A stretch of DNA of 24,000 nucleotides from Christensenellaceae bacterium (GCA_045613025.1 JAZLAE010000013.1:38486-62485), one strand, 5' to 3'; positions 1,834 to 23,969 are shown, numbered from the stretch's first letter. A program made the numbers and translations. The notes: a model not told the origin generated them from the sequence alone.

Positions 1834-2094
1834 ATGTTGATGAAGAGTCGTTCAAATATCGTTTTTTAGAGAGATAACGGTTGGTGCAAGTTATTAAAAG
1901 GGTATTGAATGTTGTAGCTTCTGAATCGGAAGGAAGAAAGCGTTGTCAAGTAGAACCTTCTCGTGATTGCTGCGTTAATGCATACGGGTTGTTAGACCTT
2001 GAGGGGCAGTATGTTACTGCAATTTGAGTGGTACCGCGGGTTTTAGATTTATCTATGCTCGTCTCAAAGTTTTATCTTTGAGACGAGCTTTTTT
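1834..2094 (+). promoter_or_regulatory. T-box leader (tRNA-sensing transcription attenuator); specifier most likely GUA (Val)
   Basis: Elements seen: GA/K-turn motif UGAUGAAG (1838-1845); AG bay AGAGAG (1868-1873); distal hairpin AUAAC-GGUUGGUGCAA-GUUAU (1874-1894). The specifier-side strand UUGUAG (1912-1917) lies directly 5' of CUUC (1918-1921), which pairs with GAAG (1842-1845). The T-box sequence is AAUUUGAGUGGUACCGCGG (2021-2039), followed by an intrinsic terminator. The UGGU bulge predicts an A73 discriminator tRNA. That fits Val, Leu or Ile but not Cys. Confidence 0.85.
2057..2094 (+). terminator. Intrinsic terminator of the T-box 1 expression platform
   Basis: GCTCGTCTCAAAG (2057-2069), loop TTTTAT, CTTTGAGACGAGC (2076-2088), then TTTTTT (2089-2094). 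Confidence 0.85.
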
Positions 2095-2113
2095 GTTTCA
2101 AACGGAGGAAATT

Positions 2114-6920: not shown

Positions 6921-7660
6921 TGGTAGTATTCGATAAACCAAAGTCACTTGTTGACGTTCCTTTACATTATTGCCCAGGTTGTACACACGGTATCGTTCAC
7001 CGTTTAGTTGCCGAAGTTATCGACGAACTTGGTATCGAAGGTAAAACTATCGGTATTGCACCCGTTGGTTGTGCGGTTATGGCTTACGATTATTTCGCTT
7101 GCGATATGATTGAAGCAGCGCACGGTAGAGCGCCTGCTGTTGCTACTGGTGTTAAGCGCGCGTTACCTGATAACGTAGTATTCACTTACCAAGGCGACGG
7201 CGACTTAGCGTCAATCGGTATGTCTGAAACAGTTCACTCTGCTGCAAGAAACGAAAACATCACTATTATCTTTATCAACAACGCAATTTACGGTATGACT
7301 GGTGGTCAAATGGCACCTACTTCTCTTCCTGGTCAAGTAACTCAAACTTCACCTTATGGTAGAGATACTAACCTTTGCGGTTTCCCTATCAAAGTTTGCG
7401 AAATGCTTTCACAACTTGACGGCCCTGAATATCTTGAAAGGGTAGCGGTTAACAACGTTAAAAATATCAAAAACGCTAAAAAAGCAATCAAGAAAGCCTT
7501 CCAAAACCAAATTGATAAAAAAGGTTTCTCTCTTGTAGAAGTTGTTTCAAGTTGCCCAACTAACTGGGGCTTAACTCCTGAAAAAGCATTACAATGGATT
7601 GATGAAAAAATGATACCTTACTATCCTTTAGGCGTATACAAGGATAGGTCGGCGAAATAA
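6920..7660 (+). CDS. 2-oxoacid:ferredoxin oxidoreductase beta subunit (TPP-binding)
   Basis: TPP motif GDGDLASIGMSETVHSAARNENITIIFINNAIYGMTGGQ, and an N-terminal CPGC cluster ligand region. The start shares one nucleotide with the upstream stop (TAATG). Confidence 0.85.
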   Translation: MVVFDKPKSLVDVPLHYCPGCTHGIVHRLVAEVIDELGIEGKTIGIAPVGCAVMAYDYFACDMIEAAHGRAPAVATGVKRALPDNVVFTYQGDGDLASIGMSETVHSAARNENITIIFINNAIYGMTGGQMAPTSLPGQVTQTSPYGRDTNLCGFPIKVCEMLSQLDGPEYLERVAVNNVKNIKNAKKAIKKAFQNQIDKKGFSLVEVVSSCPTNWGLTPEKALQWIDEKMIPYYPLGVYKDRSAK

Positions 7661-7673
7661 GGGGGCAATTAAA

Positions 7674-8210
7674 ATGAACGAAAAATATTTATTTGCCGGT
7701 TTCGGCGGTCAAGGTATATTATTCTCTGGTAAAGTTTTAGCGTATAAAGGTCTTACTGATGGCAAAAACGTAAGTTGGCTTCCATCATACGGCCCTGAAA
7801 TGCGTGGTGGTACTGCAAGTTGTAGCGTTATCGTAAGTGATAACCCTATCGGTTCACCTATCGTTTCTAATCCTGAAATTTTAATAGCAATGAACCTTCC
7901 ATCTCTTGATTTATACGAAGATAGAGTAACAAGTGGCGGTATGATTTTCGTTGACTCATCACTTGTTGATAGAAAGGTTAATAGAACTGACGTAAAAGCA
8001 TTTTATATCCCTGCAACAAAACTTGCATCGGATAACGGAATTCCAACCCTTGCAAATATGATTATTATGGGTAAGGTTTTAGCGGAAACTAACGGCTTTA
8101 ACGATGAAAACGGCGTAAGAAACGCTTTAACTAAAGTTATTTCAGCAAAGCGTGCCGATATGTTAGAAGTTAACCTTAACGCTATGAAGTTGGGTAGAGA
8201 CTTCAAATAA
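7674..8210 (+). CDS. 2-oxoacid:ferredoxin oxidoreductase gamma subunit
   Basis: [17 protein letters not shown]...[18 protein letters not shown] is typical of gamma subunits. GGGGG-type RBS. Confidence 0.85.
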
Positions 8211-8241
8211 GATTACGCTTTTGATTTAAAGGAGAATTATT

Positions 8242-9306
8242 ATGGAAATTAAAATCACTAAAACTACAAGTCCTGCGGTTAAACCAGACAGTAGTATTTT
8301 AGGTTTCGGTAAATACTTTACCGACCATATGTTTATAATGGATTATTCGGCTGACAAAGGTTGGCACGATGCAAGAATAGTACCGTTTGGTAGAATTGAT
8401 ATTCACCCAGCATCAACAGTACTTCACTACGGCTCTGAAATCTTTGAAGGTTTAAAAGCATATAGAACAAAAGATGGTAGCGTACAACTTTTCCGTCCGC
8501 TTGAAAACATTAGAAGAATGAACCGCTCAGCAGAACGTATGTGTTTACCTGAAATCCCTGAAGATATGGCACTTGAAGCGTTAACTACCTTTATCAAAAT
8601 GGAACAAGACTGGGTTCCATCTGCACCAGGTACTTCACTTTATATCCGTCCGTTTATGTTCGGTAACGATGAAACTTTAGGTGTTCACGCCGTTAAAAAC
8701 GCTAAATTTGTTATTATAACTTCACCTGTTGGTAGTTATTATAAAGAAGGCATTAACCCTGTTAAAATTATGATTGAATCTGAAGACGTACGTGCCGTTC
8801 GCGGTGGTACGGGCGAAGCAAAATGCGGTGGTAACTACGCTGCAAGTAATAGGGCAGGCGAAAGGGCAGAAAAGAAAGGTTACTCTCAAGTATTATGGCT
8901 TGACGGTGTTGAAAGAAAATACATCGAAGAAGTTGGCGCAATGAACGTTATGTTCAAAATCGCAGGCGAAATCGTTACGCCTAAACTTGCAGGTTCAATT
9001 CTTCCAGGTATTACAAGAAAATCTATCCTTGAACTTTTACAAAAAGAAGGTTATAAGGTTTCTGAAAGACTTATCTCTGTTGATGAACTTGCCGAAGCAA
9101 TGAAAAACGGCACGCTTGAAGAAGCATGGGGTTGCGGTACTGCAGCCGTTGTTTCACCTATCGGTGAACTTTGCTATCAAGACGTTAAATACTCTATCAA
9201 CAACGGTAAAATCGGCGAAGTTACTCAACACTTATACGATACTTTAACAGGTATTCAATGGGGTAATAAGGAAGATGTATTTAATTGGGTTTACCCAATT
9301 AAATAA
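8242..9306 (+). CDS. ilvE: Branched-chain amino acid aminotransferase (fold type IV)
   Basis: About 354 aa, with family-typical segments YGSEIFEGLKAYR, LYIRPFMFG, EAKCGGNYAAS, GITRKSILEL, GTAAVVSPI. AAAGGAG RBS. Confidence 0.85.
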   Translation: MEIKITKTTSPAVKPDSSILGFGKYFTDHMFIMDYSADKGWHDARIVPFGRIDIHPASTVLHYGSEIFEGLKAYRTKDGSVQLFRPLENIRRMNRSAERMCLPEIPEDMALEALTTFIKMEQDWVPSAPGTSLYIRPFMFGNDETLGVHAVKNAKFVIITSPVGSYYKEGINPVKIMIESEDVRAVRGGTGEAKCGGNYAASNRAGERAEKKGYSQVLWLDGVERKYIEEVGAMNVMFKIAGEIVTPKLAGSILPGITRKSILELLQKEGYKVSERLISVDELAEAMKNGTLEEAWGCGTAAVVSPIGELCYQDVKYSINNGKIGEVTQHLYDTLTGIQWGNKEDVFNWVYPIK

Positions 9307-9713: not shown

Positions 9714-9726
9714 ACTTAAAAATAAA

Positions 9727-9989
9727 CGCGATGAAGCGAAATAGTAAGTAAATTTTCTTGCTTTTAGAGAGATGCTGGTTGGTGCAAGGCGTTAGAAGAA
9801 TTTTACCGAACTCGTCGCAGAGCGGTTGCCGTGAAAGGTTAGTAGTGGCAAACGGGAACTCCCGTAAAAGAGTTAGGTGTGTTTGCACCAAAGTGCGCTT
9901 TCTTAAGCGAATAAGAGTGGTACCGCGGAAATAGTTTATCCTAAACGTTTTCGTCTCTTTAAGAAGTAAGGAGACAAAAGCGTTTTTTT
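9727..9989 (+). promoter_or_regulatory. T-box leader, specifier CUC (Leu)
   Basis: GA motif GCGAUGAAGCGAA (9728-9740); AG bay AGAGAG (9766-9771); distal loop GGUUGGUGCAA (9777-9787). The specifier loop 3' side is GAA-CUC-G (9808-9814), directly 5' of UCGC (9815-9818), which pairs with GCGA (9736-9739). The T-box sequence is AAUAAGAGUGGUACCGCGG (9911-9929), followed by a terminator. The UGGU bulge is compatible with A73 of tRNA-Leu. Confidence 0.88.
9946..9989 (+). terminator. Intrinsic terminator of the T-box 2 expression platform
   Basis: CGTTTTCGTCTC (9946-9957) pairs with GAGACAAAAGCG (9971-9982), followed by TTTTTTT (9983-9989). CGGAAA (9925-9930) can pair with TTTTCG (9948-9953) as the antiterminator. 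Confidence 0.8.
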
Positions 9990-10023: not shown

Positions 10024-11409
10024 ATGAAAAAAATCGATATTATTGACGTTACGCTTAAAAAACTCTCAGAAGAACGCGAAGTTGCGCTTTTATTCCGTGA
10101 AAAATCTGCTATTGCTACAAAAGCCGATTTATTAGGTGCTGACGTTATTGAACTTCCTGCAGTTAAAAACTTCCGTGAAGATGCAATTATCTATAAAACT
10201 ATTTCTCAAAACGTTCAAAACGCTATTTTAACAATCCCTGTTGGCTTTGATAAAGAAAGCGTTGCTAACGCTTGGGAATGTGTTAAATTTGCTAAAAAAC
10301 CACGCTTACAAATCGAACTTCCAGTGTCTACTATTCAAATGGAATATACTTACCACGTTAAGCAAGAAAAAATGCTTGATAAAATTGTTGCGCTTATTAA
10401 AGAAGCAAAAAATTATTGTGAAGACGTAGAGTTTTCTGCGCTTGATGCAACAAGGGCTGACGTTAATTTCTTATTAACTGCAGTTAAAACTGCTGAAGAA
10501 AACGGCGCTACCGTTATTAACGTTTGTGATAACGCGGGCAACTCAACCCCTGAAGAAATCGCTTCGCTTGTTGAAAAAATTAAAGGCGTTGTTTCTATTC
10601 CACTTTACGTTCAAGTATCTAATCGCGTATTTATGGGCGTTGCTTCGGCTTTTTCTGCTATCACTAAAGGCGCAGACGGTTTAAAATGCGCTATTGATGG
10701 TAAAGACGTTCTTATTACTGGCGAAATTTGTGATGCCGTTTCAGTTTGCGGTGCAACTATCGGTGCAAAAATCAATCTTAACACTACTAAAATTCACGCA
10801 AGCATCGAAGATGTCCTTTCTAAAATCAATCATAAAGACTTATCCGCTACAAGCATAAGTGATAAAAACAAAATTTTACTTGACAGCGACGCTACTTTAA
10901 AAGACGTATTAACTTCTGCTACCGCACTTGGCTATGACCTTACTGAGTCTGATGCGGGTAAAGTATTTAATGCGCTTGTTAAGGTTTGTGAGAAAAAAGG
11001 TGCTATCGGTTCAAAGGAATTTGAAGCGCTTATTGCAAGTAACGCAATGCAAGCACCATCTACTTACCACTTTGAAACTTACACAACAACAAGCAGTAAC
11101 GTTTCAACTTCTATGTCGCAAGTAACTTTAAAAAGAAACGGAGAAATCATCTCTGGCGTTAGTTCGGGCGACGGTCCTATCGACTCTGTTTTCCGTGCTA
11201 TAGAACAATGTATCGGTCACCACTACGAACTTGATGATTACCAAGTTCAATCGGTAACCGAAGGTAAAGAAGCGTTAGGTTCAGCGCTTGTAAGACTTCG
11301 CAACAACGGCAAACTTTATTCTGGTAACGGTACTTCAACCGATATCGTTGGTGCAAGTATTAGGGCGTATATTAACGCGCTTAATAAAATCGTAGCCGAG
11401 GAGGCGTAA
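10024..11409 (+). CDS. LeuA/HMGL-like protein with degenerate catalytic motifs and an intact LeuA C-terminal regulatory (dimerisation) domain
   Basis: AAGGAGA RBS. The fold-level resemblance to 2-isopropylmalate synthase is clear: IDIIDVTL..., VEFSALDATR, INVCDNAGNSTPEE, KGADGLKCAIDG. The C-terminal part, GDGPIDSVFRAIEQ...YQVQSVTEGKEALGSALVRL...GNGTSTDIVGASIRAYINALNKI, is a typical LeuA_dimer domain. However, DTTLRDGEQ is replaced by DVTLKKLSE, the HxH metal site by QVS, and no HESGIHQDG-like motif is seen. Confidence 0.75.
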   Translation: MKKIDIIDVTLKKLSEEREVALLFREKSAIATKADLLGADVIELPAVKNFREDAIIYKTISQNVQNAILTIPVGFDKESVANAWECVKFAKKPRLQIELPVSTIQMEYTYHVKQEKMLDKIVALIKEAKNYCEDVEFSALDATRADVNFLLTAVKTAEENGATVINVCDNAGNSTPEEIASLVEKIKGVVSIPLYVQVSNRVFMGVASAFSAITKGADGLKCAIDGKDVLITGEICDAVSVCGATIGAKINLNTTKIHASIEDVLSKINHKDLSATSISDKNKILLDSDATLKDVLTSATALGYDLTESDAGKVFNALVKVCEKKGAIGSKEFEALIASNAMQAPSTYHFETYTTTSSNVSTSMSQVTLKRNGEIISGVSSGDGPIDSVFRAIEQCIGHHYELDDYQVQSVTEGKEALGSALVRLRNNGKLYSGNGTSTDIVGASIRAYINALNKIVAEEA

Positions 11410-11410
11410 T

Positions 11411-13873
11411 ATGAAAATAGTATTTTCAACCAAAAACGTAATAAGGGCGTCATTTTTAGATGCTTGTGCTTACGCTTACGATTACGGTTTTGAAGGCTTT
11501 GAAATATACGATGCGGTAAAAGAAAGAATCGACCATTACGACAGTATTTTAAGGCGTGATAAAGTTGCCGATAGCAAGCGAAAACTTGTAAACAGGGGTC
11601 TTTCTGTTTCGGCACTTCGTATGCCTGACGTTATCGAAAGTCAAAACGTTACTAAAGAATTAGTAGAAAAATACGTTGAAATGGCAAGTTTAGCGGGTGT
11701 TTCAAACGTTATCGTTAGCATAAATGATAAAGTTTCGTTTGATATTTTAAACGAAAAACTTACCCCTGCAGTAAAACTTGCTGAAAGGTTAGACGTAAAT
11801 ATCTTATTTGAAACTATAGGTTACCTTTCTAATACTGAAAACGTTATAGAAATTATCAACTATTTCTCATCGGCGGTAATAGGTGCTTCTTGGAACGTAA
11901 GGGGTACTTACTTCGGCGCAAAAGAATCGGCAGAGTCTACCATTAAAACGCTTGGCGCGTATATCAAATACGTGCGCCTTGGCGATATGAAAGGTGATAA
12001 AACCGTGCTTATCGGCGAAGGTGATTTAGACGTAGAAAAACTTTTAAACGCACTTTCTTCACTCAACTACGACGGCTTTATTTGTTGTGCTTGGAACGAA
12101 GAAATTAACGATGCCGATATAGTACTCACTCACTTTGCAAACTACGTTTCTTCGCTTAACCGCGATAAGAAAACTAATACCGAAAAATATTACAATAGGG
12201 ATAAATCGGGTTCTTTCGTATGGAAAAAATACGACGTTATCGATGCAACTTTCTCACAAGTTTTAGATACGATGGTAGAAAACTATCCCGACCAATACGC
12301 TTTTAAATACCCTACTTTAGACTATACGCGCACTTACGAACAATTCCGTCGCGACGTTGACGAATGCGCCGCAGCGCTTATTTCTCTTGGCGTAAAAGCG
12401 GGCGACCACGTTGCCGTTTGGGCAACTAACGTGCCTGAGTGGTTTATTACTTTCTGGGCAACTACTAAAATCGGTGCGGTACTTGTTACAGTTAACACGG
12501 CTTATAAAATTCACGAAATCGAATACTTACTTAAACAATCGGATACTCACACCCTTGTTATGATTGAGTATTGCAAAGATATCAACTATAAAGAAATTAT
12601 CGAAGAACTTTGCCCTGAACTTAAAACTTTGGAAGCGGGCAAACCTTTATATTCTAAATCGTTACCGTTCCTTAGAAACGTTGTAACCGTTGGCTTTAAT
12701 ATGGACGGCTGTTTAACTTGGGAACAAATGTTATCGCGTTCTTCACTTATTCCTATTGAAGAAGTAAGGCGTCGTGCATCACTTGTTAAACCGGACGACG
12801 TTTGCAATATGCAATACACTTCAGGTACAACGGGTTTCCCTAAAGGCGTTATGCTTACACACCGCAATATCGTAAACAACGGTAAAACTATCGGTGACAG
12901 AATGGATTTATCTACTGCCGACCGTATGATGATTCAAGTACCTATGTTCCACTGTTTTGGTATGGTGCTTTCAATGACTTCTATGATGACTCACGGTGGT
13001 ACGCTTTGTCCTATTCCGTACTTCTCACCAAAATCATCACTTGCTTGCGTAAACGATGAAAGAATCACTTGCTTTAACGGTGTTCCTACAATGTTTATTG
13101 CAATGTTCAACCACCCTGATTTTTCTAAAACTGACTTTAGTTATATGCGTACGGGTATTATGGCGGGTGCTAACTGTCCTGCCGACTTAATGCGCCGTGC
13201 ATCAGTTGAAATGAACATGCGCGAAATCATTTCAGTTTACGGTCAAACGGAAGCCGCACCTGGCTGTACAATGGGCGAAGTTAATGAAGACTTAGACCAT
13301 AGGGTAGAAACTGTAGGTAGTGCTTTCCCTGGTGTTGAATGTAAGATAATCGACCCTGAAACAGGTAAAGAACTCCCTGACGGCGAAAGCGGTGAATTCG
13401 TTGCGCGTGGCTTTAATATTATGAAAGGCTACTACAAAATGCCTGAAGCAACTGCACAAGCCATTGATAAAGACGGTTGGCTTCACTCTGGCGATATTTG
13501 TATGAGAACGCCTGACGGTTACTATAAAGTAACTGGTAGGCTTAAAGATATGATTATCCGTGGTGGCGAAAACCTTTATCCGCGTGAAATTGAAGAATTC
13601 TATTTAACTAACCCAAAAGTTAGGGATATTCAAGTAGTTGGCGTGCCTGATGAAAGATACGGCGAAGAATGTTGCGCTTGGATTATTCTTCATAAAGGCG
13701 AAACTGCCGATGAAAACGAAATGCGCGAATACGGTAACGCGTCTATTGCAAGGCATAAAGTTCCAAGATATTTCGTGTTCGTTAATGAATTCCCTATGAA
13801 CGCTGCGGGCAAAATTTTAAAATACAAAATGCGTGAAAGTTCTATTGAAATGTTAGGACTTAAAAAGGCTTAA
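11411..13873 (+). CDS. Fusion protein: xylose-isomerase-like (AP endonuclease 2 family) TIM barrel + FadD-type AMP-forming acyl-CoA ligase
   Basis: A GAGGAGG RBS lies inside the end of the upstream gene, and the ATG is 1 nt after its stop. The N-terminal ~250 aa has TIM-barrel family segments (GFEGFEIYD, LAGVSNVIV, LAERLDVNILFETIG, YIKYVRLGD). From about residue 270 it is a complete adenylate-forming ligase (MQYTSGTTGFPKGVMLTH, YGQTEA, GWLHSGDICMRTPDGYYKVTGRLKDMIIRGGENLYPREIEE, NAAGKILK). Confidence 0.8.
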   Translation: MKIVFSTKNVIRASFLDACAYAYDYGFEGFEIYDAVKERIDHYDSILRRDKVADSKRKLVNRGLSVSALRMPDVIESQNVTKELVEKYVEMASLAGVSNVIVSINDKVSFDILNEKLTPAVKLAERLDVNILFETIGYLSNTENVIEIINYFSSAVIGASWNVRGTYFGAKESAESTIKTLGAYIKYVRLGDMKGDKTVLIGEGDLDVEKLLNALSSLNYDGFICCAWNEEINDADIVLTHFANYVSSLNRDKKTNTEKYYNRDKSGSFVWKKYDVIDATFSQVLDTMVENYPDQYAFKYPTLDYTRTYEQFRRDVDECAAALISLGVKAGDHVAVWATNVPEWFITFWATTKIGAVLVTVNTAYKIHEIEYLLKQSDTHTLVMIEYCKDINYKEIIEELCPELKTLEAGKPLYSKSLPFLRNVVTVGFNMDGCLTWEQMLSRSSLIPIEEVRRRASLVKPDDVCNMQYTSGTTGFPKGVMLTHRNIVNNGKTIGDRMDLSTADRMMIQVPMFHCFGMVLSMTSMMTHGGTLCPIPYFSPKSSLACVNDERITCFNGVPTMFIAMFNHPDFSKTDFSYMRTGIMAGANCPADLMRRASVEMNMREIISVYGQTEAAPGCTMGEVNEDLDHRVETVGSAFPGVECKIIDPETGKELPDGESGEFVARGFNIMKGYYKMPEATAQAIDKDGWLHSGDICMRTPDGYYKVTGRLKDMIIRGGENLYPREIEEFYLTNPKVRDIQVVGVPDERYGEECCAWIILHKGETADENEMREYGNASIARHKVPRYFVFVNEFPMNAAGKILKYKMRESSIEMLGLKKA

Positions 13874-14896: not shown

Positions 14897-16084
14897 TTAG
14901 ATTAAGTTAAATTCTTTAGCAAGTAACAAAAACGCGTCTTTGCTATTTACCGCAGTTTTTTTATCAACGCAAGTAGCAAGCCTTAAATATCCTTTTACGC
15001 CAAAACTATCTGACGGAACTAATAAAAGCCCGTATTTTTTAGCGTGGTTGCTAAATTCAACCGCGTCTGAAATAGGCGATTTAATAAATAAATAGAACGC
15101 GCCTTTAGGGTTAACACAAATAAAGTTAAGGTCTGTTAGCGTTTTAATTAAAATATCGCGGTTATCTTTATAAGGGTTAGGGTTAGAAACCTTATCCGCG
15201 TGTTTAGCAAGCACCTTTTGGAAAAGTGATGGCGCACACACGTAACCAAGCGCTCTACCCGCGCCCATAACGGTAATGTAAAGGTCGCTTGCATTTTCGC
15301 ATTTAGGCGAAACGGCAATATAACCTATTCTTTCACCAGGGAGAGATAACGCTTTACTGTACGAATAGCAAATAATAGTGTTATTATAAAAACTTGGAAT
15401 ATACGGACAAGTTGCACCGTCAAATAAAATTTCCCTATAAGGTTCATCGGCTATAATATATATAGGATAGCCGTATTCCTTTTGCTTATCGTCAAGAATT
15501 TTAGAAATAGCCTTGATAGTTTCTTCATCGTAAACAGTACCCGCTGGGTTATTAGGGCTATTTATTATAACACCCCTTGTTTTATTCGTGATAGATTTTT
15601 CAAATTCTTCTAAATTGATAGAAAAGTTAACTTCATCGCAAGTAACGTATTTAAACACCCCGCCCGACGTTTCAGTAAACACCCTATATTCAGGGAAGAA
15701 AGGTGCTACCCCCAAAATTTCTTCATCGGCTTCAGATAAAATTGAAGATAAAACTATCTTTAACGCGGCAGCAGCACCGCAAGTCATATAAATTAAGTTT
15801 TCGTTTAAACTAAAGCCGTATTTTTGCTTGTTGTAATCGGCTATTGCCTTTCTTGTTTGTAAATCGCCATTAGCCGAAGTATAAGCGTGTGCAGACGGGT
15901 CGTTAGCGATAAGCCACGTTGCATATTCATCAACTTCCTTAGGGCAAGGAACGCTTGGGTTGCCAATGGTGAAATCGTAAACTTTATCTTCGCCGATTTC
16001 TTGCTTTAATTGTTTGCCGTATTCAAATAATTCACGGATAACAGAGCGTTGCGCACCAAGACCGTACATTTTTTTATTTAACAT
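14897..16084 (-). CDS. Class I/II PLP-dependent aminotransferase (Asp/aromatic/Ala aminotransferase-like)
   Basis: 395 aa. Motifs NPSVP, INSPNNPAGTVY and YSYSKALSLPGERIGY (PLP lysine context). AGGAGAC RBS on the minus strand. Confidence 0.8.
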   Translation of the reverse strand: MLNKKMYGLGAQRSVIRELFEYGKQLKQEIGEDKVYDFTIGNPSVPCPKEVDEYATWLIANDPSAHAYTSANGDLQTRKAIADYNKQKYGFSLNENLIYMTCGAAAALKIVLSSILSEADEEILGVAPFFPEYRVFTETSGGVFKYVTCDEVNFSINLEEFEKSITNKTRGVIINSPNNPAGTVYDEETIKAISKILDDKQKEYGYPIYIIADEPYREILFDGATCPYIPSFYNNTIICYSYSKALSLPGERIGYIAVSPKCENASDLYITVMGAGRALGYVCAPSLFQKVLAKHADKVSNPNPYKDNRDILIKTLTDLNFICVNPKGAFYLFIKSPISDAVEFSNHAKKYGLLLVPSDSFGVKGYLRLATCVDKKTAVNSKDAFLLLAKEFNLI

Positions 16085-16111
16085 AAACGTGTCTCCTAAT
16101 AACTATAATAA

Positions 16112-16140
16112 ATGATATCATAAACGCTAAAAAAATTCAA
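16112..16140 (-). promoter_or_regulatory. Candidate sigma-A promoter for the aminotransferase gene
   Basis: On the minus strand: TTGAAT (16140-16135), 17-nt spacer, TATCAT (16117-16112). Confidence 0.5.
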
Positions 16141-16169
16141 TAAAATACGTGATTATTTTAAAAAAACAA

Positions 16170-16198
16170 TTGACTTTTAAAAAAAATAGGAATATACT
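16170..16198 (+). promoter_or_regulatory. Sigma-A type promoter of the aro operon leader
   Basis: TTGACT (16170-16175), 17-nt spacer, TATACT (16193-16198). Confidence 0.65.
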
Positions 16199-16220
16199 CT
16201 TTGCTATAAGGAACAAGATT

Positions 16221-16280
16221 ATGAAAAAATTTGCTAACACTTATTATTTTGCATATTACTTTTTTAGACCTGATTTTTAA
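16221..16280 (+). CDS. Candidate leader peptide MKKFANTYYFAYYFFRPDF (Phe/Tyr-rich) of an attenuator
   Basis: AAGGA (16208-16212) lies 8 nt before the ATG. There are 19 codons, 9 of them Phe or Tyr, concentrated in codons 8-15. It lies between the promoter and a terminator, upstream of a Phe/Tyr biosynthesis operon. It is not in the supplied ORF track because it is too short. Confidence 0.6.
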   Translation: MKKFANTYYFAYYFFRPDF

Positions 16281-16342
16281 TATCGGTTATTTTTGCGTTC
16301 TTTAAATTTTTTAAAAAAAGTTATAAAAGATGTATTTTAAAT

Positions 16343-16370
16343 GACCGAATTTCAAGTTCGGTCTTTTTTT
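16343..16370 (+). terminator. Intrinsic terminator (attenuator segments 3:4) upstream of aroF
   Basis: GACCGAA (16343-16349), loop, TTCGGTC (16357-16363), TTTTTTT (16364-16370). It lies 70 nt upstream of the aroF start, so it is a leader terminator. Confidence 0.8.
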
Positions 16371-16439
16371 ATTTTAAATTATTTTTATAGATATTAAAAA
16401 AAATCAATATATTACTATACTACTTAAGGAGAATATGTT

Positions 16440-17456
16440 ATGATTATAGTAGTTAAACAACAACACGAAGAGAAACAACTTGATAATTTAATCAAATGGA
16501 TTAAAAACTTGGGTTTAGAGGTCGATTTAAGCCGTGGTTCGCACTCAACCATATTAGGTTTAATTGGCGATACAAGTAAGGTGGATATCGACCTTATCCG
16601 TTCGCTTGATATCGTTGAAAACGTTAAGCGTATTCAAGAACCCTTTAAATGTGCTAATCGTAAATTCCATCCAGACGATACTATCGTGGAAGTTGGCGAC
16701 GCTAAGTTTGGTGGAGACAATTTCTCTATCATAGCAGGGCCTTGTTCGATTGAAACTGAAAGCCAAATCATAGAAGTTGCTTGGGCTGTAAAAAATGCAG
16801 GCGCTAAAGTGCTTCGCGGTGGCGCGTTTAAACCAAGAACTTCGCCGTACTCTTTCCAAGGTTTAAAAAGTAAGGGTTTAGACCTTTTACTTAAAGCCAA
16901 ACAAGAAACGGGTATGCCTATCGTTACCGAAATTATGAGTTCATCTCACCTTGATTTGTTTAGTGACGTTGATATCATCCAAATCGGCGCAAGAAATATG
17001 CAAAACTTCGAACTTTTAAAAGAAGTAGGCAAAACTAAAAAACCTGTTCTTTTAAAACGTGGTCTTTGCAGTACTATTGAAGAATGGCTTATGAGTGCCG
17101 AATACTTAATGAGCGAAGGTACTAAAGATATTATCTTATGCGAACGCGGTATTCGTACTTTTGAAACGTATACAAGAAACACTTTAGATTTATCCGCTAT
17201 CCCGCTTATAAAAGAGTTAACGCATTTACCCGTTGTAGTAGACCCGTCGCACGCGTCTGGTCTTTCAAGGCTTGTAAAACCGTTATCGCTTGCATCGGTT
17301 GGCTCTGGTGCAGACGGACTTATGATAGAAGTGCACAACAATCCGCAATGCGCACTTTGTGACGGCGCGCAATCACTTAAACCCGATGAGTTTAGCGACG
17401 TGGTTAAAAAAGTTAACGTGATGTTGCCACTTTGCAACAAGAAAGAGATATTATGA
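16440..17456 (+). CDS. aroF: 3-deoxy-7-phosphoheptulonate (DAHP) synthase, type I-beta, with an N-terminal ferredoxin-like regulatory domain
   Basis: 338 aa. About 75 N-terminal residues (IIVVKQQHEE...LGLIGDTS...) precede the catalytic barrel (IIAGPCSIE, LRGGAFKPRTSPYSFQG, KRG, VDPSH). AAGGAGA RBS. Confidence 0.88.
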   Translation: MIIVVKQQHEEKQLDNLIKWIKNLGLEVDLSRGSHSTILGLIGDTSKVDIDLIRSLDIVENVKRIQEPFKCANRKFHPDDTIVEVGDAKFGGDNFSIIAGPCSIETESQIIEVAWAVKNAGAKVLRGGAFKPRTSPYSFQGLKSKGLDLLLKAKQETGMPIVTEIMSSSHLDLFSDVDIIQIGARNMQNFELLKEVGKTKKPVLLKRGLCSTIEEWLMSAEYLMSEGTKDIILCERGIRTFETYTRNTLDLSAIPLIKELTHLPVVVDPSHASGLSRLVKPLSLASVGSGADGLMIEVHNNPQCALCDGAQSLKPDEFSDVVKKVNVMLPLCNKKEIL

Positions 17457-18310
17457 ATATAGGTTTAATAGGTCTTGGACTTATCGGTGGTTCTTTTGGT
17501 AGAACTTTAATTAAAAAAACAAACCATAAAATTTACGGTTACGACATAAGTGAAACAGTTATGTTAAAGGCGGAAATGCTTAACGCTTTTAACGAAAAAT
17601 TAACGATTGATAACGCTAAAGATTTAGATATGCTTATTATTTCCGTTTACCCTGATTATTTTGAAGACGCGGTAAAAAAATTCTTACCACATCTTAAAAA
17701 AGGGACTATCGTTACCGATTTTTCGGGCGTGAAAGGAATTATTATTGATAAGATGAAAAATTATCAAAAACAGTTCCCTGACCTAATTTTTATAGGTGGT
17801 CACCCTATGGCGGGTAGGGAATTTTCGGGTATAGAACACTCTATAACCACGTTATTTGATAAAGCGTTTATGATTTTAGTTCCGATAAACGCGGATATCT
17901 TTACCCTTAGCGAAATCAAAAATTTCTATAAGGAACTTGGCTTTTTAGACGTAGTTATAACTACCGCTGAAAATCACGATGAAATGATAGCGTACACTTC
18001 GCAACTTTGCCATATAGTATCAAACGCCTTTATAAAAAACGAAACGGCAGAAAAACACCTTGGCTATTCTGCAGGAAGTTATAAAGACTTAACAAGGGTT
18101 GCAAGGCTTAATAGTGAAATGTGGTCTGGGCTTATGATGGCAAATAAGGCTAAACTTAAAAAAGAACTTGATGAGTTTATTTTAAACTTGCAAAAATATT
18201 CAACCGCCCTTGAAAATGGCAGTAGGGAAGAATTAGAACTTTTGCTTAAAGAAGGCAATGATAGAAAACTTTCAATCGACGTAAGGAGTAGTAAAAACAA
18301 TGGAAATTAA
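17453..18310 (+). CDS. tyrA: Prephenate dehydrogenase
   Basis: MNIGLIGLGLIGGSFG Rossmann motif at the N-terminus, and GGHPMAG. ATG 17453 overlaps the aroF stop (ATGA). The TTG at 17432 in the ORF track is rejected. Confidence 0.85.
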   Translation: MNIGLIGLGLIGGSFGRTLIKKTNHKIYGYDISETVMLKAEMLNAFNEKLTIDNAKDLDMLIISVYPDYFEDAVKKFLPHLKKGTIVTDFSGVKGIIIDKMKNYQKQFPDLIFIGGHPMAGREFSGIEHSITTLFDKAFMILVPINADIFTLSEIKNFYKELGFLDVVITTAENHDEMIAYTSQLCHIVSNAFIKNETAEKHLGYSAGSYKDLTRVARLNSEMWSGLMMANKAKLKKELDEFILNLQKYSTALENGSREELELLLKEGNDRKLSIDVRSSKNNGN

Positions 18311-19316
18311 AGTTAGCGCGTCAAAAGATTATTCAGTTATAATCAATGATAATTTAACTAAATTAAAATCTTACGCACAAAAGGTAATTAACGGTGATAA
18401 ACTTGCTATAATTACCGATAAAACGGTAGGCGAACTTTACGCTTTAAAAGTAAAGGAAATATTTAGCGATTATTCCGTTTACGTGTATACGATTGACGGC
18501 GGTGAAGACGGTAAAAGTTTACAAAACTATTTTGAACTTTTACAGTTTTTAGCGGATAACGGGTTTAAGCGTAACGATACCGTTGTTGCTTTAGGCGGTG
18601 GCGTTATAGGTGACTTAGCGGGATTTACCGCTTCAACTTATATGCGCGGTATCAATTTAATAATGATACCAACCACTCTTCTTAGTATGGTTGATTCTTC
18701 GGTTGGTGGCAAAACCGCCGTTAACTTGCCAAACGGCAAAAATTTAGTAGGCAGTTTTTATCAACCGTCGCTTGTATACGTTTCTACTGAATTTTTAAAC
18801 ACCTTGTCAAGCCGTGAAATTTTAAGTGGTATGGGCGAAATTATTAAATATTCGTTTATCGGTAGTGGGCTTACCCTTAACGATATAAAAGACGGCGTAA
18901 ATGCAAGTTTAATTTATAAATGTATAGATATTAAGCGCCAAATTGTTGAAAACGATGAAAAAGAAAGTGGAGAGCGTAAACTTTTAAACTTAGGCCACAC
19001 CGTTGGTCACGCAATTGAAAAAATAGAAAATTATAACCTTTCGCACGGGGAGTGCGTTTTAAAAGGGCTTTACTATTCGCTTGAAATATCTAAAAAATTA
19101 GGGGTGTTAAATAATACTAATTATTTAAAAAGCCTTGAAATTATTACGGCAAGCGGTTATAATAGTTTTAATTTATATAAAAAGCAAGAACTTATTAAAT
19201 ACATTACCCTTGACAAAAAGGGAATTAAAGATAGCGTTGACTTTATCGTTATAGACGATACCTTAAAAGCCAAAGTAAAAAGAATTAATATAGATAACTT
19301 AACGGAATTACTTTAA
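18300..19316 (+). CDS. aroB: 3-dehydroquinate synthase
   Basis: GGGVIGDLAGFTASTYMRGI, VDSSVGGKTAVN, LNLGHTVGHAIE. It overlaps the tyrA end by 11 nt. Confidence 0.9.
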   Translation: MEIKVSASKDYSVIINDNLTKLKSYAQKVINGDKLAIITDKTVGELYALKVKEIFSDYSVYVYTIDGGEDGKSLQNYFELLQFLADNGFKRNDTVVALGGGVIGDLAGFTASTYMRGINLIMIPTTLLSMVDSSVGGKTAVNLPNGKNLVGSFYQPSLVYVSTEFLNTLSSREILSGMGEIIKYSFIGSGLTLNDIKDGVNASLIYKCIDIKRQIVENDEKESGERKLLNLGHTVGHAIEKIENYNLSHGECVLKGLYYSLEISKKLGVLNNTNYLKSLEIITASGYNSFNLYKKQELIKYITLDKKGIKDSVDFIVIDDTLKAKVKRINIDNLTELL

Positions 19317-19317
19317 A

Positions 19318-20559
19318 ATGGATATTAAAATTACACCTTCAAACGTTAGCGGAGTGGTGTGTGCACCGCCCTCTAAATCATACGCGCACAGATATATAAT
19401 TGCATCGTTTTTATCTAAAACGGCGGGTTTTATATCTAACGTAGAGCCGTCAAACGACGTGCTTGCTACTTTAAACGCGCTTAAAAATTTAGGGCTTAAC
19501 TATTCGTTTGAAAGGGGTGGTTTATCTTTAAGTTATGTTGTAGCCTTAAAAAACCCGATTATTGATTGCAATGAAAGCGGTTCAACTTTAAGGTTTTTAA
19601 TACCTATCGTATCAGCACTTGGCGTTTTAAGTGAATTCACTGGTAGTAAAAGGCTTTTAGAAAGACCTATTAAAGATTTAACCGACTGTTTAAATAATAA
19701 CGGGGCGGAAATTAGCGGGCTTAAGTTAAACGGCAAACTAAAAAGCGGAAAGTTTAAAATAAACGGTGGCGTTAGTTCACAGTTTATTACAGGTTTACTT
19801 TTTGCTTTGCCACTTTTAAACGGGGATAGCGTTATTGAAATAATAGGCGAAACGGTTAGCCAAAACTATATTGATATTACCCTTGACGTGTTAAACGATT
19901 TTGGCGTAGTAATAGCAAAAACGGATAACGGCTACTTCGTTAAAGGAAATCAAACGTACAAAATGCCAAGTCAAATGGCGGTAGAAGGTGATTACTCTAA
20001 CTCAGCATTCTTACTTGCTTTAGGCGTTTTAGGTAGTGGTGTTACCGTTTTAAATTTAAATAAAAATTCTAAGCAAGGCGATAGAAAGATAATTGATATT
20101 TTGAAAGACTTTGGTGGAATTATAACCGAAGTAGATAACGGCTATTTTGCTAAAAAAGGTCAACTTAAAGGTACTGTGGTTGATTGTGAAGATATACCCG
20201 ATATAGTTCAAATTTTATCGGTTGTGGCTTCTTATTCTAATGGCGTAAGCCTATTTAAAAATGTAAACCGCCTTGAAATTAAAGAGAGTAACCGCGTTTT
20301 AGGTATTGTAAACAATCTTAAAAATGCGGGCATTAAAGCCGAATATAACGGCAAAGACTTAACCATTTACGGCGGAACGGTAAAAAACGGCACGTTTAAT
20401 GGCGATAACGACCATAGAACTGTAATGGCTATGGCGGTGTTGTCGGCGTTTAATAATGGCGAAAGCACTATTAAAGGCGTTGAAGCGGTAAACAAATCAT
20501 ACCCAACGTTCTTTAAAGATTTTAGTAATTTAGGGGGAGTAACAAATGGCGATATTTAA
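19318..20559 (+). CDS. aroA: 3-phosphoshikimate 1-carboxyvinyltransferase (EPSP synthase)
   Basis: 413 aa. PPSKSYAHRYII, ESGSTLRFL, LERPI, DHRTVMAMAV. Confidence 0.9.
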   Translation: MDIKITPSNVSGVVCAPPSKSYAHRYIIASFLSKTAGFISNVEPSNDVLATLNALKNLGLNYSFERGGLSLSYVVALKNPIIDCNESGSTLRFLIPIVSALGVLSEFTGSKRLLERPIKDLTDCLNNNGAEISGLKLNGKLKSGKFKINGGVSSQFITGLLFALPLLNGDSVIEIIGETVSQNYIDITLDVLNDFGVVIAKTDNGYFVKGNQTYKMPSQMAVEGDYSNSAFLLALGVLGSGVTVLNLNKNSKQGDRKIIDILKDFGGIITEVDNGYFAKKGQLKGTVVDCEDIPDIVQILSVVASYSNGVSLFKNVNRLEIKESNRVLGIVNNLKNAGIKAEYNGKDLTIYGGTVKNGTFNGDNDHRTVMAMAVLSAFNNGESTIKGVEAVNKSYPTFFKDFSNLGGVTNGDI

Positions 20560-21607
20560 CGGTAAAAACTTAAATATAGAAATTTACGGCGAATCACATG
20601 CGGAAGAAATCGGCGTAAAAGTTAAAGGTCTTCCTAAATTTAATTACGATTTAACAAAACTTAAAGACTTTTTAGATAGGCGCAAACCGTCTAAAAGTGT
20701 GTTTTCTACTTCAAGAAAGGAAGAAGATAGCCCAGTTATTAGCATAGATAATAATTTAGGCGTTTTAACTGCCGAAATTAAAAATACTAACAAAAAAAGC
20801 GGAGATTACGCTAATTTATATGGTAAACCAAGACCATCGCACGCGGATTATAGCAGTTTTTTAAAGGACGGTACTTTAGATTATTCGGGCGGTGGCAGAT
20901 TTTCAGGTAGGCTTACAGCCCCACTTTGTATTGTTGGTGGCGTGTTAAAGCAATACCTTAAAAGTTTAGGTATAGAAGTTCACGCTTACGTTTCAAGTGT
21001 TGGCGAAATCAATGCTAAATCATACTTAGATGGCGAAATTTATAGCGAAGATATATTAAACAATCGCGAAAATGGTGGTTTTCCGTCACTTGATAAAAAG
21101 GATGAAATTTTAAATTTGATTTCTAACGTTAAAAAGGACGGCGATAGCGTAGGCGGTGTAATTGAGTGTATCGTTTACGGTATGAAAACTGGTGTTGGCG
21201 ATAATCTTTTTGAAGGGTTAGAAGGAAAAATTGCATCGCTTGTGTATTCTGTGCCTGCGGTTAAGGGCGTAGAGTTTGGCGGTGGTTTTAGCCTTTCTAA
21301 AAAAACTGGTAGCATTGCAAACGATAGTTTGCATTATAACGGCGAAACAGTTAACTTTAAAACGAATAATTCAGGCGGAATAAACGGTGGGATTTCAAAC
21401 GGCGCACAAATAACTTTAAGGGTTGCCGTTAAACCTACTCCGTCGATTTCAAAAGAACAAGAAACGGTTGACTTAGTAAATAAGCAAAGCTGTAAAATTA
21501 AAATTTCAGGTAGGCACGACGCTTGTATTGTTCCAAGGGCTGTGCCTTGTATAGAAAGTGCGGTAATGATTGCTATTACCGATGAGTTGATAGGAGAGTT
21601 TTTATGA
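20546..21607 (+). CDS. aroC: Chorismate synthase
   Basis: 353 aa. YGESHAEEIG, RPSHADY, GGGRFSGR, GGISNG, GRHDACIVPRA. Confidence 0.9.
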   Translation: MAIFNGKNLNIEIYGESHAEEIGVKVKGLPKFNYDLTKLKDFLDRRKPSKSVFSTSRKEEDSPVISIDNNLGVLTAEIKNTNKKSGDYANLYGKPRPSHADYSSFLKDGTLDYSGGGRFSGRLTAPLCIVGGVLKQYLKSLGIEVHAYVSSVGEINAKSYLDGEIYSEDILNNRENGGFPSLDKKDEILNLISNVKKDGDSVGGVIECIVYGMKTGVGDNLFEGLEGKIASLVYSVPAVKGVEFGGGFSLSKKTGSIANDSLHYNGETVNFKTNNSGGINGGISNGAQITLRVAVKPTPSISKEQETVDLVNKQSCKIKISGRHDACIVPRAVPCIESAVMIAITDELIGEFL

Positions 21608-22746
21608 AAAACTTAGACGATATTAGAAGTAAAATTGATGAAATAGACGATAACCTTGTAGAACTTTTCCTTTCACGTATGGAACTTTGCGGTGAAGTTG
21701 CTAAAAATAAAATTCAAACGGGTAAAAACGTACAAGATACTTCAAGGGAAGATGCTATCTTATACCGTTTATCTAAAAAAGTTCCAAGCGATATGCAATT
21801 TTACTTAAAGGAATTATATTCAACACTTTTCACTTTAAGTAAATCTTACCAAGGCGTATTGATAAACAAAACGTCTAAAACGGTAGACAAGATTAAAGGC
21901 GTGATTGATAGCGGTATGACTGCTTTTCCTATATCGGCAAGCGTTGCTTGTCAAGGCGTGGCGGGTGCTAATAGCGGTAGCGCGGCTAAAAAAGTTTTTT
22001 CTATTTGCGATATTAGTTATTTTAAAAACTTTGAAGGTGTTTTCTCTGCGGTAGATAAAGGTCTTTGCGACTACGGTGTATTACCTATTGAAAACAGTAC
22101 TGCAGGTTCAGTACTTGAAGTTTACGACCTTATGGCTAAGTATAACTTCTATATCGTGCGTTCTGTAAGGGTAAAAATAAACCATTGCTTAGCAACGGTA
22201 AACGGCGGGGATATTAAGTCTATTAAAAAGGTAATATCTCACTCTCAGGCACTTTCACAATGTAACGAATACGTTAAGAAACTTGGCGTGGAAGCAGAAT
22301 CGGTTGAAAACACTGCCGTTTCCGCTAAAAAGGTTCTTGAAGCAAACGATACTACCCTTGCTTGCTTTTGCTCAAAAGAGTGCGCTGAACTTTACGGCCT
22401 TAAAATTTTAGAAGAAAGCGTGCAAGATAATCAAAGCAACTACACAAGGTTTATCGTAATTAGTAAAGACTTAAAGGTTTTTGATGGTAACGATAAAATT
22501 AGCGTTATGACTACCGCTCCTAACGAAATAGGTAGTTTAAGTAAAATTTTAACGCGTTTTGCTTCGCTTGGTTTAAGTTTAACTAAAATAGAATCACGCC
22601 CTATTATCGGTACTGATTTTGAAGTGTTATTCTACTTCGATTTTGAAGGTAGCGTTAAAGACGGAGGCGTACTCAACTTAATTTCTGAACTTGAGAATGG
22701 TTCACTTAAATTTAAATTCTTAGGTACTTACAAGGAACTTATATGA
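21604..22746 (+). CDS. pheA: Bifunctional chorismate mutase / prephenate dehydratase with a C-terminal ACT domain
   Basis: N-terminal CM_2 helix (LDDIRSKIDEIDDNLVELFLSRMEL), PDT core (VACQGVAGANSGSAA, YGVLPIENSTAGSV, NYTRF), and ACT (GSLSKILTRFASLGLSLTKIESRP). ATGA overlap with aroC. Confidence 0.88.
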   Translation: MKNLDDIRSKIDEIDDNLVELFLSRMELCGEVAKNKIQTGKNVQDTSREDAILYRLSKKVPSDMQFYLKELYSTLFTLSKSYQGVLINKTSKTVDKIKGVIDSGMTAFPISASVACQGVAGANSGSAAKKVFSICDISYFKNFEGVFSAVDKGLCDYGVLPIENSTAGSVLEVYDLMAKYNFYIVRSVRVKINHCLATVNGGDIKSIKKVISHSQALSQCNEYVKKLGVEAESVENTAVSAKKVLEANDTTLACFCSKECAELYGLKILEESVQDNQSNYTRFIVISKDLKVFDGNDKISVMTTAPNEIGSLSKILTRFASLGLSLTKIESRPIIGTDFEVLFYFDFEGSVKDGGVLNLISELENGSLKFKFLGTYKELI

Positions 22747-23969
22747 AATACTGTTTGATAGGGGAGAAACTTGGACACAGTTATTCTAAAATTATCCACG
22801 AAAAACTTGGTTTAAGTTATTCCTTAAAAGAACTTAATAGTAAAGAACTTAAAAACTTCTTATCAAACCCTGATTGTGACGGTTTTAACGTTACTATCCC
22901 TTATAAAAGGGACGTTATACCTTTTATGGATAGTTTATCGCCTACCGCAAGTTTAGCGGGTGCGGTTAACACGGTAGTAAATAAAAACGGCAAACTCTGC
23001 GGTTACAATACCGACGTTGACGGTATGAACTATATGCTAAATAAAGTTGGCGTAAGTGTAAAAGATAAGGTGGTAATGATTTTAGGTGGTGGCGGTACGT
23101 CTAACACGGCGGTTACCCTTTGCAAAAGGGAAAACGCTAAACTTTACCGCGTTGTAAGTAGAAGCGGTGAGATAAACTATCAAAACTGCTATGAATATCA
23201 AGATACTCAAATAATAATAAACACAACCCCTGTAGGAATGTTCCCTAACGTGGAAAGTAAACCGATAGATTTATCTAAATTTTCTAATCTTATAGGTGTG
23301 TTTGATTGCGTTTATAACCCTAAAAACACCGAACTTTTATCGCAAGCCAAAGACCTTAATATCAAAAACAACGGCGGACTTGATATGCTTGTAAAACAAG
23401 CGGTTTTAGCGTATAATATATGGCAAGATAATTCTAAATGTGAAGATATAACTAAAAAAATCGCAAGCGAAATAGACTTTGAAACTAAAAACATAGTCCT
23501 TTCGGGTATGCCGTCGGCGGGTAAAACTACTATAGGCAAAAGCCTTGCTAAAATTCTTAATAAAGAGTTTTACGACAGCGATGATTGTATAAGTGTAACT
23601 TACGGTAAAACCCCTAAAGAGATAATTGAAAGCGACGGCGAAGAAAAGTTTAGGGAGTTAGAAAGCCTTGTTATAAAAGACCTTTCGTTAAAGCGCGGGG
23701 CAGTTATCGCGCTTGGCGGTGGCGCGGTTATTAAAGATATTAACGTTAAAAACTTAAAGCGCAACGGCGTGATTTTCTATATTAAAAGAAACTTAGATTT
23801 ACTTAAAACGGATAGCCGTCCGTTATCGCAAAAACAAGGCGTTAAAGAGTTATACGAAAAAAGAAAAGGCATTTACGAAAGCGTTAGCGACTATATCGTA
23901 GAAAATAGCGGCGATATCGAAAACGCTATTAAGGAGATAATTTCAAATTATGAAAATTCTTGTAATTAA
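22743..23969 (+). CDS. aroE: Fusion: shikimate dehydrogenase (N-terminal) + shikimate kinase (C-terminal)
   Basis: The N-terminal ~245 aa is AroE-like (GHSYSKIIHE, FNVTIPYK, GAVNTV, NTDVDG, LGGGGTSN). The C-terminus has the kinase P-loop VLSGMPSAGKTTIGKSLA, DSDD and LGGGAV. ATGA overlap with pheA. Confidence 0.85.
   Translation: MKYCLIGEKLGHSYSKIIHEKLGLSYSLKELNSKELKNFLSNPDCDGFNVTIPYKRDVIPFMDSLSPTASLAGAVNTVVNKNGKLCGYNTDVDGMNYMLNKVGVSVKDKVVMILGGGGTSNTAVTLCKRENAKLYRVVSRSGEINYQNCYEYQDTQIIINTTPVGMFPNVESKPIDLSKFSNLIGVFDCVYNPKNTELLSQAKDLNIKNNGGLDMLVKQAVLAYNIWQDNSKCEDITKKIASEIDFETKNIVLSGMPSAGKTTIGKSLAKILNKEFYDSDDCISVTYGKTPKEIIESDGEEKFRELESLVIKDLSLKRGAVIALGGGAVIKDINVKNLKRNGVIFYIKRNLDLLKTDSRPLSQKQGVKELYEKRKGIYESVSDYIVENSGDIENAIKEIISNYENSCN

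Follow-up and report, generated by a model that had tools for sequence, protein, structure and literature searches.

Background

Leader-peptide attenuation of transcription is textbook knowledge in Proteobacteria, and the Rfam families Trp_leader and Phe_leader represent the trpL and pheL leader-peptide attenuators of Escherichia coli. In Bacillota, attenuation of this kind is treated as rare, because T-boxes, riboswitches and RNA-binding proteins dominate and because the RNA polymerase of Bacillus subtilis outruns the ribosomes. Here we describe the leader upstream of aroF in a stretch of 24,000 nucleotides (nt) from a Christensenellaceae bacterium (GCA_045613025.1 JAZLAE010000013.1:38486-62485), called the window below, in which all positions are counted from the first letter. 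The leader contains a short open reading frame (ORF) rich in phenylalanine and tyrosine (F/Y) codons followed by an intrinsic terminator, and its sequence and that of its relatives make it probable that it acts as a ribosome-mediated (leader-peptide) transcription attenuator, by which the operon aroF-tyrA-aroB-aroA-aroC-pheA-aroE/K is expressed according to how much charged tRNA-Phe and tRNA-Tyr is available. As a type, the regulator of the window itself is ordinary and well understood.

The mechanism of trpL and pheL attenuation has been summarized elsewhere (PMC11802643, PMC3082878). The leader in the window resembles these systems in having a short ORF rich in codons for the end product, a stop codon a few nt before segment 2, mutually exclusive pairings of segment 2 with segment 3 (2:3, the antiterminator) and of segment 3 with segment 4 (3:4, the terminator), a T-run, and a position ahead of genes that make the sensed amino acid; the spacing of the stop codon and segments 2, 3 and 4 is like that of trpL. 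It differs in showing no sequence or covariance-model similarity to either system, in the proposed sensing of both Phe and Tyr in one interleaved run, in the control of the common pathway and both branches instead of pheA alone, in its weak 1:2 hairpin and stabler antiterminated fold, and in its host, which belongs to the Clostridia class of Bacillota and is not a proteobacterium.

Two other systems likewise lie ahead of aroF. In Corynebacterium glutamicum, the leader peptide aroR (Phe-Tyr-Phe) lies upstream of aroF (Neshat 2014, as described in PMC11802643); it places mixed Phe and Tyr codons before a DAHP synthase operon, and stalling on them is reported to raise transcription (PMC11802643). 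Compared on that description, aroR differs in belonging to Actinobacteria, in having three regulatory codons as against 8-10, and in its reported response to Phe and not to Tyr (PMC11802643). The uORFC-13-1 motif of Brewer et al. (2021), known from 24 representatives in Acholeplasma and environmental sequences, was proposed as a Phe-sensing attenuator and occurs exclusively upstream of aroF, in hosts within or near the Bacillota (PMC8632094). It is described as a promoter, a ribosome-binding site, a start codon and U-rich Phe codons followed by an intrinsic terminator, and on this description the window has every one of these parts; the motif differs in calling for 'at least one' Phe codon, with Tyr unmentioned (PMC8632094). 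There was no Acholeplasma among the genomes of the 80 DAHP synthase loci closest to that of the window. The leader peptide aroR in Corynebacterium and the motif uORFC-13-1 in Acholeplasma appear to be the closest precedents.

Within the Bacillota, His leader-peptide attenuators have been predicted in the B. cereus group, Peptostreptococcaceae and Erysipelotrichales (PMC2965389, PMC9413887). They too are cases of classical attenuation recognized by comparative genomics, Clostridia included, where it replaces T-box or repressor control; they concern another amino acid and another operon, have no sequence relation to the leader described here, and occur in a small number of narrow lineages, while the F/Y leaders extend over many families of Clostridia. 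The T-box (RF00230) likewise chooses between terminator and antiterminator in the 5' leader of amino acid genes of Bacillota and senses tRNA charging, but a T-box recognizes uncharged tRNA by direct binding and does not depend on an ORF; at ~165 nt, the aro leader is far shorter and has no specifier or T-box sequence. An initial annotation of the window had called the logic of this leader unusual for Bacillota, which is fair but not absolute, as the His leaders and an upstream ORF motif at aroF have been proposed there (PMC2965389, PMC9413887, PMC8632094). A literature search that reached few subscription papers returned no description of F/Y leaders in Clostridia.

A search of Rfam with positions 16080-16445 gave no match at the gathering score and, at E-values up to 10, only chance-level hits to unrelated small RNA and CRISPR models; nor was any family found at the gathering score on the leaders of 20 related loci. 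Membership in Phe_leader, the leu/phe leader, the T-box or a known riboswitch was rejected because of this lack of Rfam matches.

Organization of the leader and proposed mechanism

The promoter, Shine-Dalgarno sequence (SD), ORF, four segments and run of seven T residues (T7) given in the initial annotation are all present, and their positions are listed in Table 1. Nine of the 19 codons of the leader ORF MKKFANTYYFAYYFFRPDF specify F/Y (5 Phe, 4 Tyr) and none Trp. Segment 2 starts 2-5 nt past the leader stop codon. The intrinsic terminator (16343-16363) has a 9-base-pair (bp) stem and a 3-nt loop followed by T7, with a hairpin energy of -10.9 kcal/mol, and was the single site reported by a terminator scan of the region. 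The gene upstream (14897-16084, minus strand, a class I/II aminotransferase) is divergent, and the hairpin therefore belongs to a 5' leader rather than marking a gene end. The seven genes downstream (16440-23969, plus strand) overlap or abut their neighbors in an operon whose Pfam assignments include no trp gene. This content agrees with the earlier statement that the operon makes Phe and Tyr and lacks trp genes.

The proposed sequence of events is as follows. Transcription would start near 16205, and a ribosome would begin on the 19-codon leader. If Phe-tRNA or Tyr-tRNA is scarce, the ribosome would stall in the YYFAYYFF run (16242-16265). A ribosome shields about 12-15 nt beyond its A-site codon, as seen by toeprinting and footprinting. 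With F15 (16263-16265) in the A site, the stalled ribosome should thus reach to about 16277, covering segment 1 and leaving segment 2 (16283-16292) free to pair with segment 3 (16339-16348) once the latter has been made; this pairing would block the terminator, and the polymerase would continue into aroF. When charged forms of both tRNAs are available, the ribosome would proceed as far as the TAA at 16278; once this stop codon occupies the A site, the ribosome should extend to about 16290 and cover segment 2, so that segments 3 and 4 would pair and transcription would end in the T-run at 16364-16370. Stalling, the sizes of the footprints and a ribosome close behind the polymerase are what we infer here. 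Folding of the leader with the stalled ribosome imposed as a mask produced the antiterminator (-16.7 kcal/mol), and the mask of the terminating ribosome produced the terminator.

Conservation of the leader upstream of related aroF genes

We collected 80 loci from genomes, with each GTDB species represented by a single genome, and 80 metagenome loci, all designated here by L numbers, whose DAHP synthase was most similar to that of the window, and scanned the 450 nt upstream of each DAHP synthase gene. The DAHP synthase of the window had no exact match on record. The closest genome relatives were uncultured Clostridia, Catabacter and Christensenellaceae metagenome-assembled genomes with 70-82% DAHP synthase identity; none of the metagenome relatives was above 72% identity, and these contributed about 50 further leaders. 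Most of the loci labelled as Clostridia have a dense F/Y run in an open frame, examples being MKKVFNYYFYNFYFFRPY in L001, MKQNLNVIFFGYYFYFKPYF in L002, MKLNGFYFYGYYFFEPIS in L004, MKRNIFAAEYFYFYFINKS in L041 and MKKFFFTATYFYYYFCFFFTSNSSLCC in L078. The loci labelled Bacteroidaceae, Treponema, Planctomycetaceae and Victivallaceae are mostly without an F/Y ORF. The best stretch of 10 codons held at least 7 F/Y codons in 45 of 81 regions read forward and in 2 of 81 read as the reverse complement, compared with a mean of 3.7 for shuffled sequences. Once duplicates were dropped, 99 unique F/Y leaders of at most 50 amino acids (aa) were retained, the length filter removing false positives from the C-terminus of pheA, and 84 of the 99 are followed by a GC-rich hairpin with a perfect stem and a T-run. 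The matches in L031, L120, L121 and L155 were excluded as such cases, being the end of pheA (EFEFRFYFDFE).

The pattern occurs at upstream GC contents from 0.21 to 0.54 and is therefore no artefact of AT-richness. Nearly all of the related leaders have an ATG start and an SD of at least 4 nt, and a promoter resembling TTGACA/TATAAT lies in the same place 5' of the leader ATG in L001, L003-L009, L014, L081 and L082. Over the 99 leaders the codons TAT (205), TAC (207), TTT (422) and TTC (86) are used, with TGG found 10 times; synonymous codons alternate freely, and the constraint is therefore on the amino acid and not on the nucleotide. It is the composition of the peptides that is conserved, while their sequence and length (14-47 aa) are not. 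The initial annotation had proposed this comparison of related aroF upstream regions and had named loss of the small ORF or of its aromatic codons as the outcome that would speak against it; the opposite was found, with the ORF, the F/Y run and the complementarity of the segments all kept.

Some leaders are more uniform in composition: those of L008, L028, L053, L057 and L069 have almost only Tyr codons, in runs of YYYYY or YYYYYY, and those of L157 and L147 almost only Phe codons. This suggests that some leaders have specialized on a single amino acid, perhaps to serve different DAHP synthase isoenzymes.

A covariance model, R1, built from L001-L004 only, matched the window at 16221-16371 over the full length of the model (49.8 bits, E ~4e-6). 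Among L001-L100, the only match beyond the four training loci was L006, and it was weak; with so few loci matched, one sequence model cannot capture the wide family. Judged in this way, the subfamily defined by sequence is small and the family defined by architecture large.

Pairing of the antiterminator

In the window, the 2:3 helix joins UCGGUUAUUU (16283-16292) to AAAUGACCGA (16339-16348) by 10 bp, including one G-U pair, and is extended beyond a bulge by AAU:AUU. The earlier concern that this helix is short does not apply to a helix of such length. Of the three pairings drawn in the initial annotation, 2:3 and 3:4 are well supported, and 1:2 is weak (-4.3 kcal/mol).

Because a MAFFT alignment of whole leaders (A1) misaligned the terminators of distant members, it was set aside, and a shorter alignment of close relatives (A2) and cross-locus permutations were used instead. 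For each of the 84 leaders that have a terminator, we took the stretch of RNA from the F/Y run up to the hairpin; these stretches bind the 5' arm of their own terminator better than those of other loci, with a matched residual of -1.50 kcal/mol (z = -6.5) that none of 5000 permutations attained. With the 3' arm as a control, the test was null in the same 84 leaders (z = -1.2, 571 of 5000 permutations). In A2, the cells of the 2:3 helix are paired in 85.5% of cases, compared with 29-42% after a shift of the partner by 1-3 columns, and three pairs have changed on both sides, with a covariation score that 9 of 500 shuffles reached.

Individual loci illustrate these changes. L001 (AUACGGUUAUUUU with AAGAUGACCGUAU) has an A-U pair where the window has U-A, and L004 keeps the pairing with GCGGUCGUU opposite GCGACCG. 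The terminator of L014 (AAGGAGCUG; AAGGAGCUGU...ACAGUUCCUU) is unrelated, yet its segment 2, GGCUCC, matches it.

As a separate observation, segment 2 of L007, L009 and L082 holds a perfect palindrome (TAGTAATTACTA in L009), which resembles the apical part of the terminator (GTAGTAATCACTAC) and could pair with either arm.

Position of segment 2 and the end of the ORF

The distance between the F/Y run and the antiterminator is also conserved. Counted from the initial base of the final F/Y codon of the run in the same 84 leaders, the median distance to the start of the predicted segment 2 is 23 nt (interquartile range 20-29), and this spacing holds whether the stop codon comes 3 or 72 nt after the run; the end of segment 2 lies a median of 3 nt past the first base of the stop codon. 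The corresponding positions in the window are 16263 for the last codon of the run, 16278 for the stop and 16283 for the start of segment 2. We could distinguish two architectures: a short ORF with its stop 2-10 nt before segment 2, to which the window belongs, and a longer ORF that continues past the start of segment 2 and through it.

The conserved nucleotides AGUAAUAGCGAUUUGUGCUGCAA are read as the codons SNSDLCCK in L069 and provide a stop codon in L032, L044 and L057, and the constraint at this place is therefore on the RNA. The end of the ORF has shifted between loci while the RNA block stayed in place. The conserved block AGUAAUAG(C/U)GAUUUGUGCUGCAA is read through as SNSDLCCK among L069, L074 and L078, and it supplies the leader stops UAA and UAG among L032, L044, L057 and L090.

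A conserved U-rich box at segment 2

The sequence TTTTTGCGTG or TTTTTGCTGC recurs at the place of a U-rich box, just after or within segment 2, in subfamilies whose terminators differ; the carriers include the window, L002, L003, L007, L009, L014, L082 and many others. It falls within the antiterminator strand in a large subfamily and outside it in the subfamily of the window. By analogy with the trp leader pause, the 1:2 hairpin together with the U-rich box TTATTTTTGCG may act as a synchronizing hairpin-plus-U-tract pause near 16297-16299. For the 1:2 hairpin, RNAalifold picks the ACC:GGU helix in L001-L004. The ACC of segment 1 is shared by the window and L003, which read it in different frames.

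Weighing of the proposed attenuator and its alternatives

Attenuation of the trpL/pheL kind, the mechanism put forward in the initial annotation, remains the best supported explanation, through the conserved ORF and F/Y run, the own-arm complementarity, the 2:3 covariation and the geometry. These properties, like the parts themselves, are observed, and the leader has the computationally testable features of a leader-peptide attenuator save a convincing 1:2 hairpin.

Several points weigh against this explanation. The 1:2 hairpin has a bulged U besides its low stability, and its cells in the alignment are paired in 64% of cases compared with 23-60% in slid controls. The antiterminated fold (-26.6 kcal/mol) is stabler than the terminated one (-21.6 kcal/mol), and termination would therefore need kinetic enforcement, with a ribosome occupying segment 2 during the synthesis of segments 3 and 4. 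Such timing needs coupling of transcription and translation, since the ribosome must follow the polymerase closely, and Bacillota have been classed as a 'runaway transcription' phylum (PMC13323073); Fuchs et al. argued that Clostridioides difficile falls outside runaway transcription (PMC8237595). The distance from the terminator to the aroF start is 76 nt in the window, and this long spacer, with a promoter-like site in it (described below), could partly bypass the attenuator. Finally, 263 of 5000 first-order Markov simulations of the intergenic region (19.7% GC) were as dense in F/Y as the leader.

It is unlikely that the switch between terminator and antiterminator is instead set by an RNA-binding protein that recognizes UAY/UUY triplets, as TRAP might, or by an unrecognized ligand- or tRNA-binding RNA, the ORF being incidental. 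A terminator with a covarying antiterminator would serve any switch of this sort, the F/Y run doubles as a UAY/UUY nucleotide repeat, and T-boxes and RNA-binding proteins are common in Bacillota, with two T-boxes in the window itself. However, no Rfam family, the T-box included, matches the leader beyond the chance-level hits given above even at E-values up to 10; an ATG with a well-spaced SD is present in nearly all of the leaders, and their run remains free of stop codons in AT-rich DNA; and TAT alternates freely with TAC, and TTT with TTC. Furthermore, the antiterminator strand lies at a fixed distance from the last F/Y codon, under or just past the end of the ORF, a placement that is sensible only for a ribosome.

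We also consider it improbable that translation of the leader matters by way of mRNA stability, access of Rho or initiation of aroF translation, with the hairpin serving as a constitutive partial terminator or as a stabilizer. The weak 1:2 hairpin and the thermodynamic preference for the antiterminated fold would fit such control, as would the doubt about coupling in Bacillota (PMC13323073) and the 76-nt spacer with its promoter-like site after the terminator. Against it, the terminator ends only 14-24 nt before the start of aroF in close relatives, a canonical GC stem with a T-run follows 84 of the 99 leaders, and the locus-specific 2:3 complementarity is exactly what a choice between terminator and antiterminator needs.

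That the ORF arose by chance in AT-rich DNA beside an ordinary hairpin, with no regulatory meaning, is effectively refuted by the comparative data, and we regard it as highly improbable. Within the window alone the case would be less clear. The leader run is the sole instance of at least 7 F/Y in an open stretch of 10 codons in the six frames of the 24 kb, but about 5% of the simulations at the GC content of this intergenic region are equally dense, so that the ORF by itself is only marginally unusual, and the earlier caution that AT-rich DNA favors TTT and TAT codons was justified. The comparative data lift the F/Y leader far above chance: 99 unique leaders share the architecture over the whole range of GC contents given above, with the strand asymmetry of 45 to 2 among 81 regions; the permutations gave z = -6.5, and an independent model matched the window with E ~4e-6. 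Moreover, with a divergent gene upstream, the terminator ends no upstream gene. An F/Y-rich stretch at 9971 was dismissed, since it is the T-run of a T-box terminator and has no start codon.

The idea that the small ORF encodes a functional hydrophobic micro-protein (a membrane peptide or toxin), for which it has its own promoter, SD and terminator, can be set aside as very remote, because only the composition and not the sequence or length of the peptide is conserved, the element directly precedes aroF, in the same orientation, in every case, and the same nucleotides are codons in some loci and a stop codon in others.

A possible family of attenuators in Clostridia

With the attenuator as the preferred explanation for the window, a broader proposal can be made, which we advance tentatively and would not yet call probable. 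The leader in the window may be one of a large family of Phe/Tyr-sensing attenuators, outside Rfam and the literature searched, that act on the aro operon across Christensenellales-like bacteria, Oscillospiraceae, Ruminococcaceae, Lachnospiraceae, Acutalibacteraceae and Anaerovoracaceae, and that have the short-ORF and read-through-ORF architectures and a conserved UUUUUGC(G/U)(U/G) box as a possible synchronizing pause. If this is true, ribosome and polymerase would be tightly coupled in a major branch of a phylum classed as one of runaway transcription. The approximately 100 distinct leaders from gut, rumen and termite-gut Clostridia suggest that ribosome-sensed control of the synthesis of aromatic amino acids is common in the class. 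Premature termination has been mapped experimentally in the 5' untranslated region of aroF in C. difficile, with no known riboregulator assigned to it (PMC8237595), and attenuation would offer a ready explanation. The combination of a short F/Y-rich ORF and a terminator ahead of aroF could serve as an annotation rule for thousands of gut genomes, and the leader as a compact Phe/Tyr-responsive switch for the engineering of anaerobes.

Features of the leader and the operon

Table 1. Positions of the leader elements and aro operon genes, counted from the first nucleotide of the window
Feature	Position	Strand	Remarks
Promoter-like TTGACT-17-TATACT, sigma-A type	16170-16198	+	10/12 consensus positions; top match in the 1-kb region scanned
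Shine-Dalgarno AAGGA	16208-16212	+	8 nt 5' of the leader ATG
Leader peptide ORF MKKFANTYYFAYYFFRPDF	16221-16280	+	ATG at 16221, 19 codons, TAA at 16278-16280
Regulatory codon run Y Y F A Y Y F F, codons 8-15	16242-16265	+	Proposed stalling site under Phe-tRNA or Tyr-tRNA scarcity
Segment 1 GACCTGAT / GACCUGAU	16267-16274	+	Within the last ORF codons; weak pairing with segment 2
Segment 2 AUCGGUUAUUU, ATCGGTT at 16282-16288	16282-16292	+	Antiterminator 5' strand; mimics the terminator 3' arm
U-rich box TTATTTTTGCGTT	16287-16299	+	Directly 3' of the 1:2 hairpin; may be a pause element for RNA polymerase
Segment 3 AAAUGACCGAAUU, GACCGAA at 16343-16349	16339-16351	+	Antiterminator 3' strand and terminator 5' arm
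Segment 4 AGUUCGGUC, TTCGGTC at 16357-16363, with T7 at 16364-16370	16355-16370	+	Terminator partner of segment 3
aroF, DAHP synthase with FXD domain	16440-17456	+	Pfam
tyrA, prephenate dehydrogenase	17432-18310	+	Pfam
aroB, dehydroquinate synthase	18300-19316	+	Pfam
aroA, EPSP synthase	19318-20559	+	Pfam
aroC, chorismate synthase	20546-21607	+	Pfam
pheA, chorismate mutase-prephenate dehydratase	21604-22746	+	Pfam
aroE-aroK fusion, shikimate dehydrogenase-kinase	22743-23969	+	Pfam

The AT-rich spacer between terminator and aroF (16371-16439) is the part in which the window departs from its closest relatives, with 76 nt from the terminator to the aroF start as against their 14-24 nt. It contains a weak promoter-like sequence, TTAAAA-16-TATACT, at 16394-16421, which might act as an internal promoter and so allow the attenuator to be bypassed, or might be mere AT-rich filler.

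Other features of the window

The remainder of the window contains two T-box leaders. The first (1828-2069, 105.7 bits) precedes a long ORF (2024-4402) that carries, in one frame, HTH_19, Cupin_2 and an MbcS-like acyl-CoA synthetase (AMP-binding); the listed TTG start of this ORF overlaps the T-box, so its true start is uncertain. After this T-box-controlled acyl-CoA synthetase, the region 5859-9306 encodes a VorB-type 2-oxoacid:ferredoxin oxidoreductase (alpha, beta and gamma) and a branched-chain aminotransferase, and the cluster looks like one that makes branched-chain amino acids from short branched acids through reductive carboxylation, as rumen bacteria do. The second T-box (9722-9961, 134.9 bits) precedes the region 10024-13873, in which a short LeuA-like synthase (461 aa) is followed by an 820-aa fusion of a xylose-isomerase-like TIM barrel and an acyl-CoA ligase.

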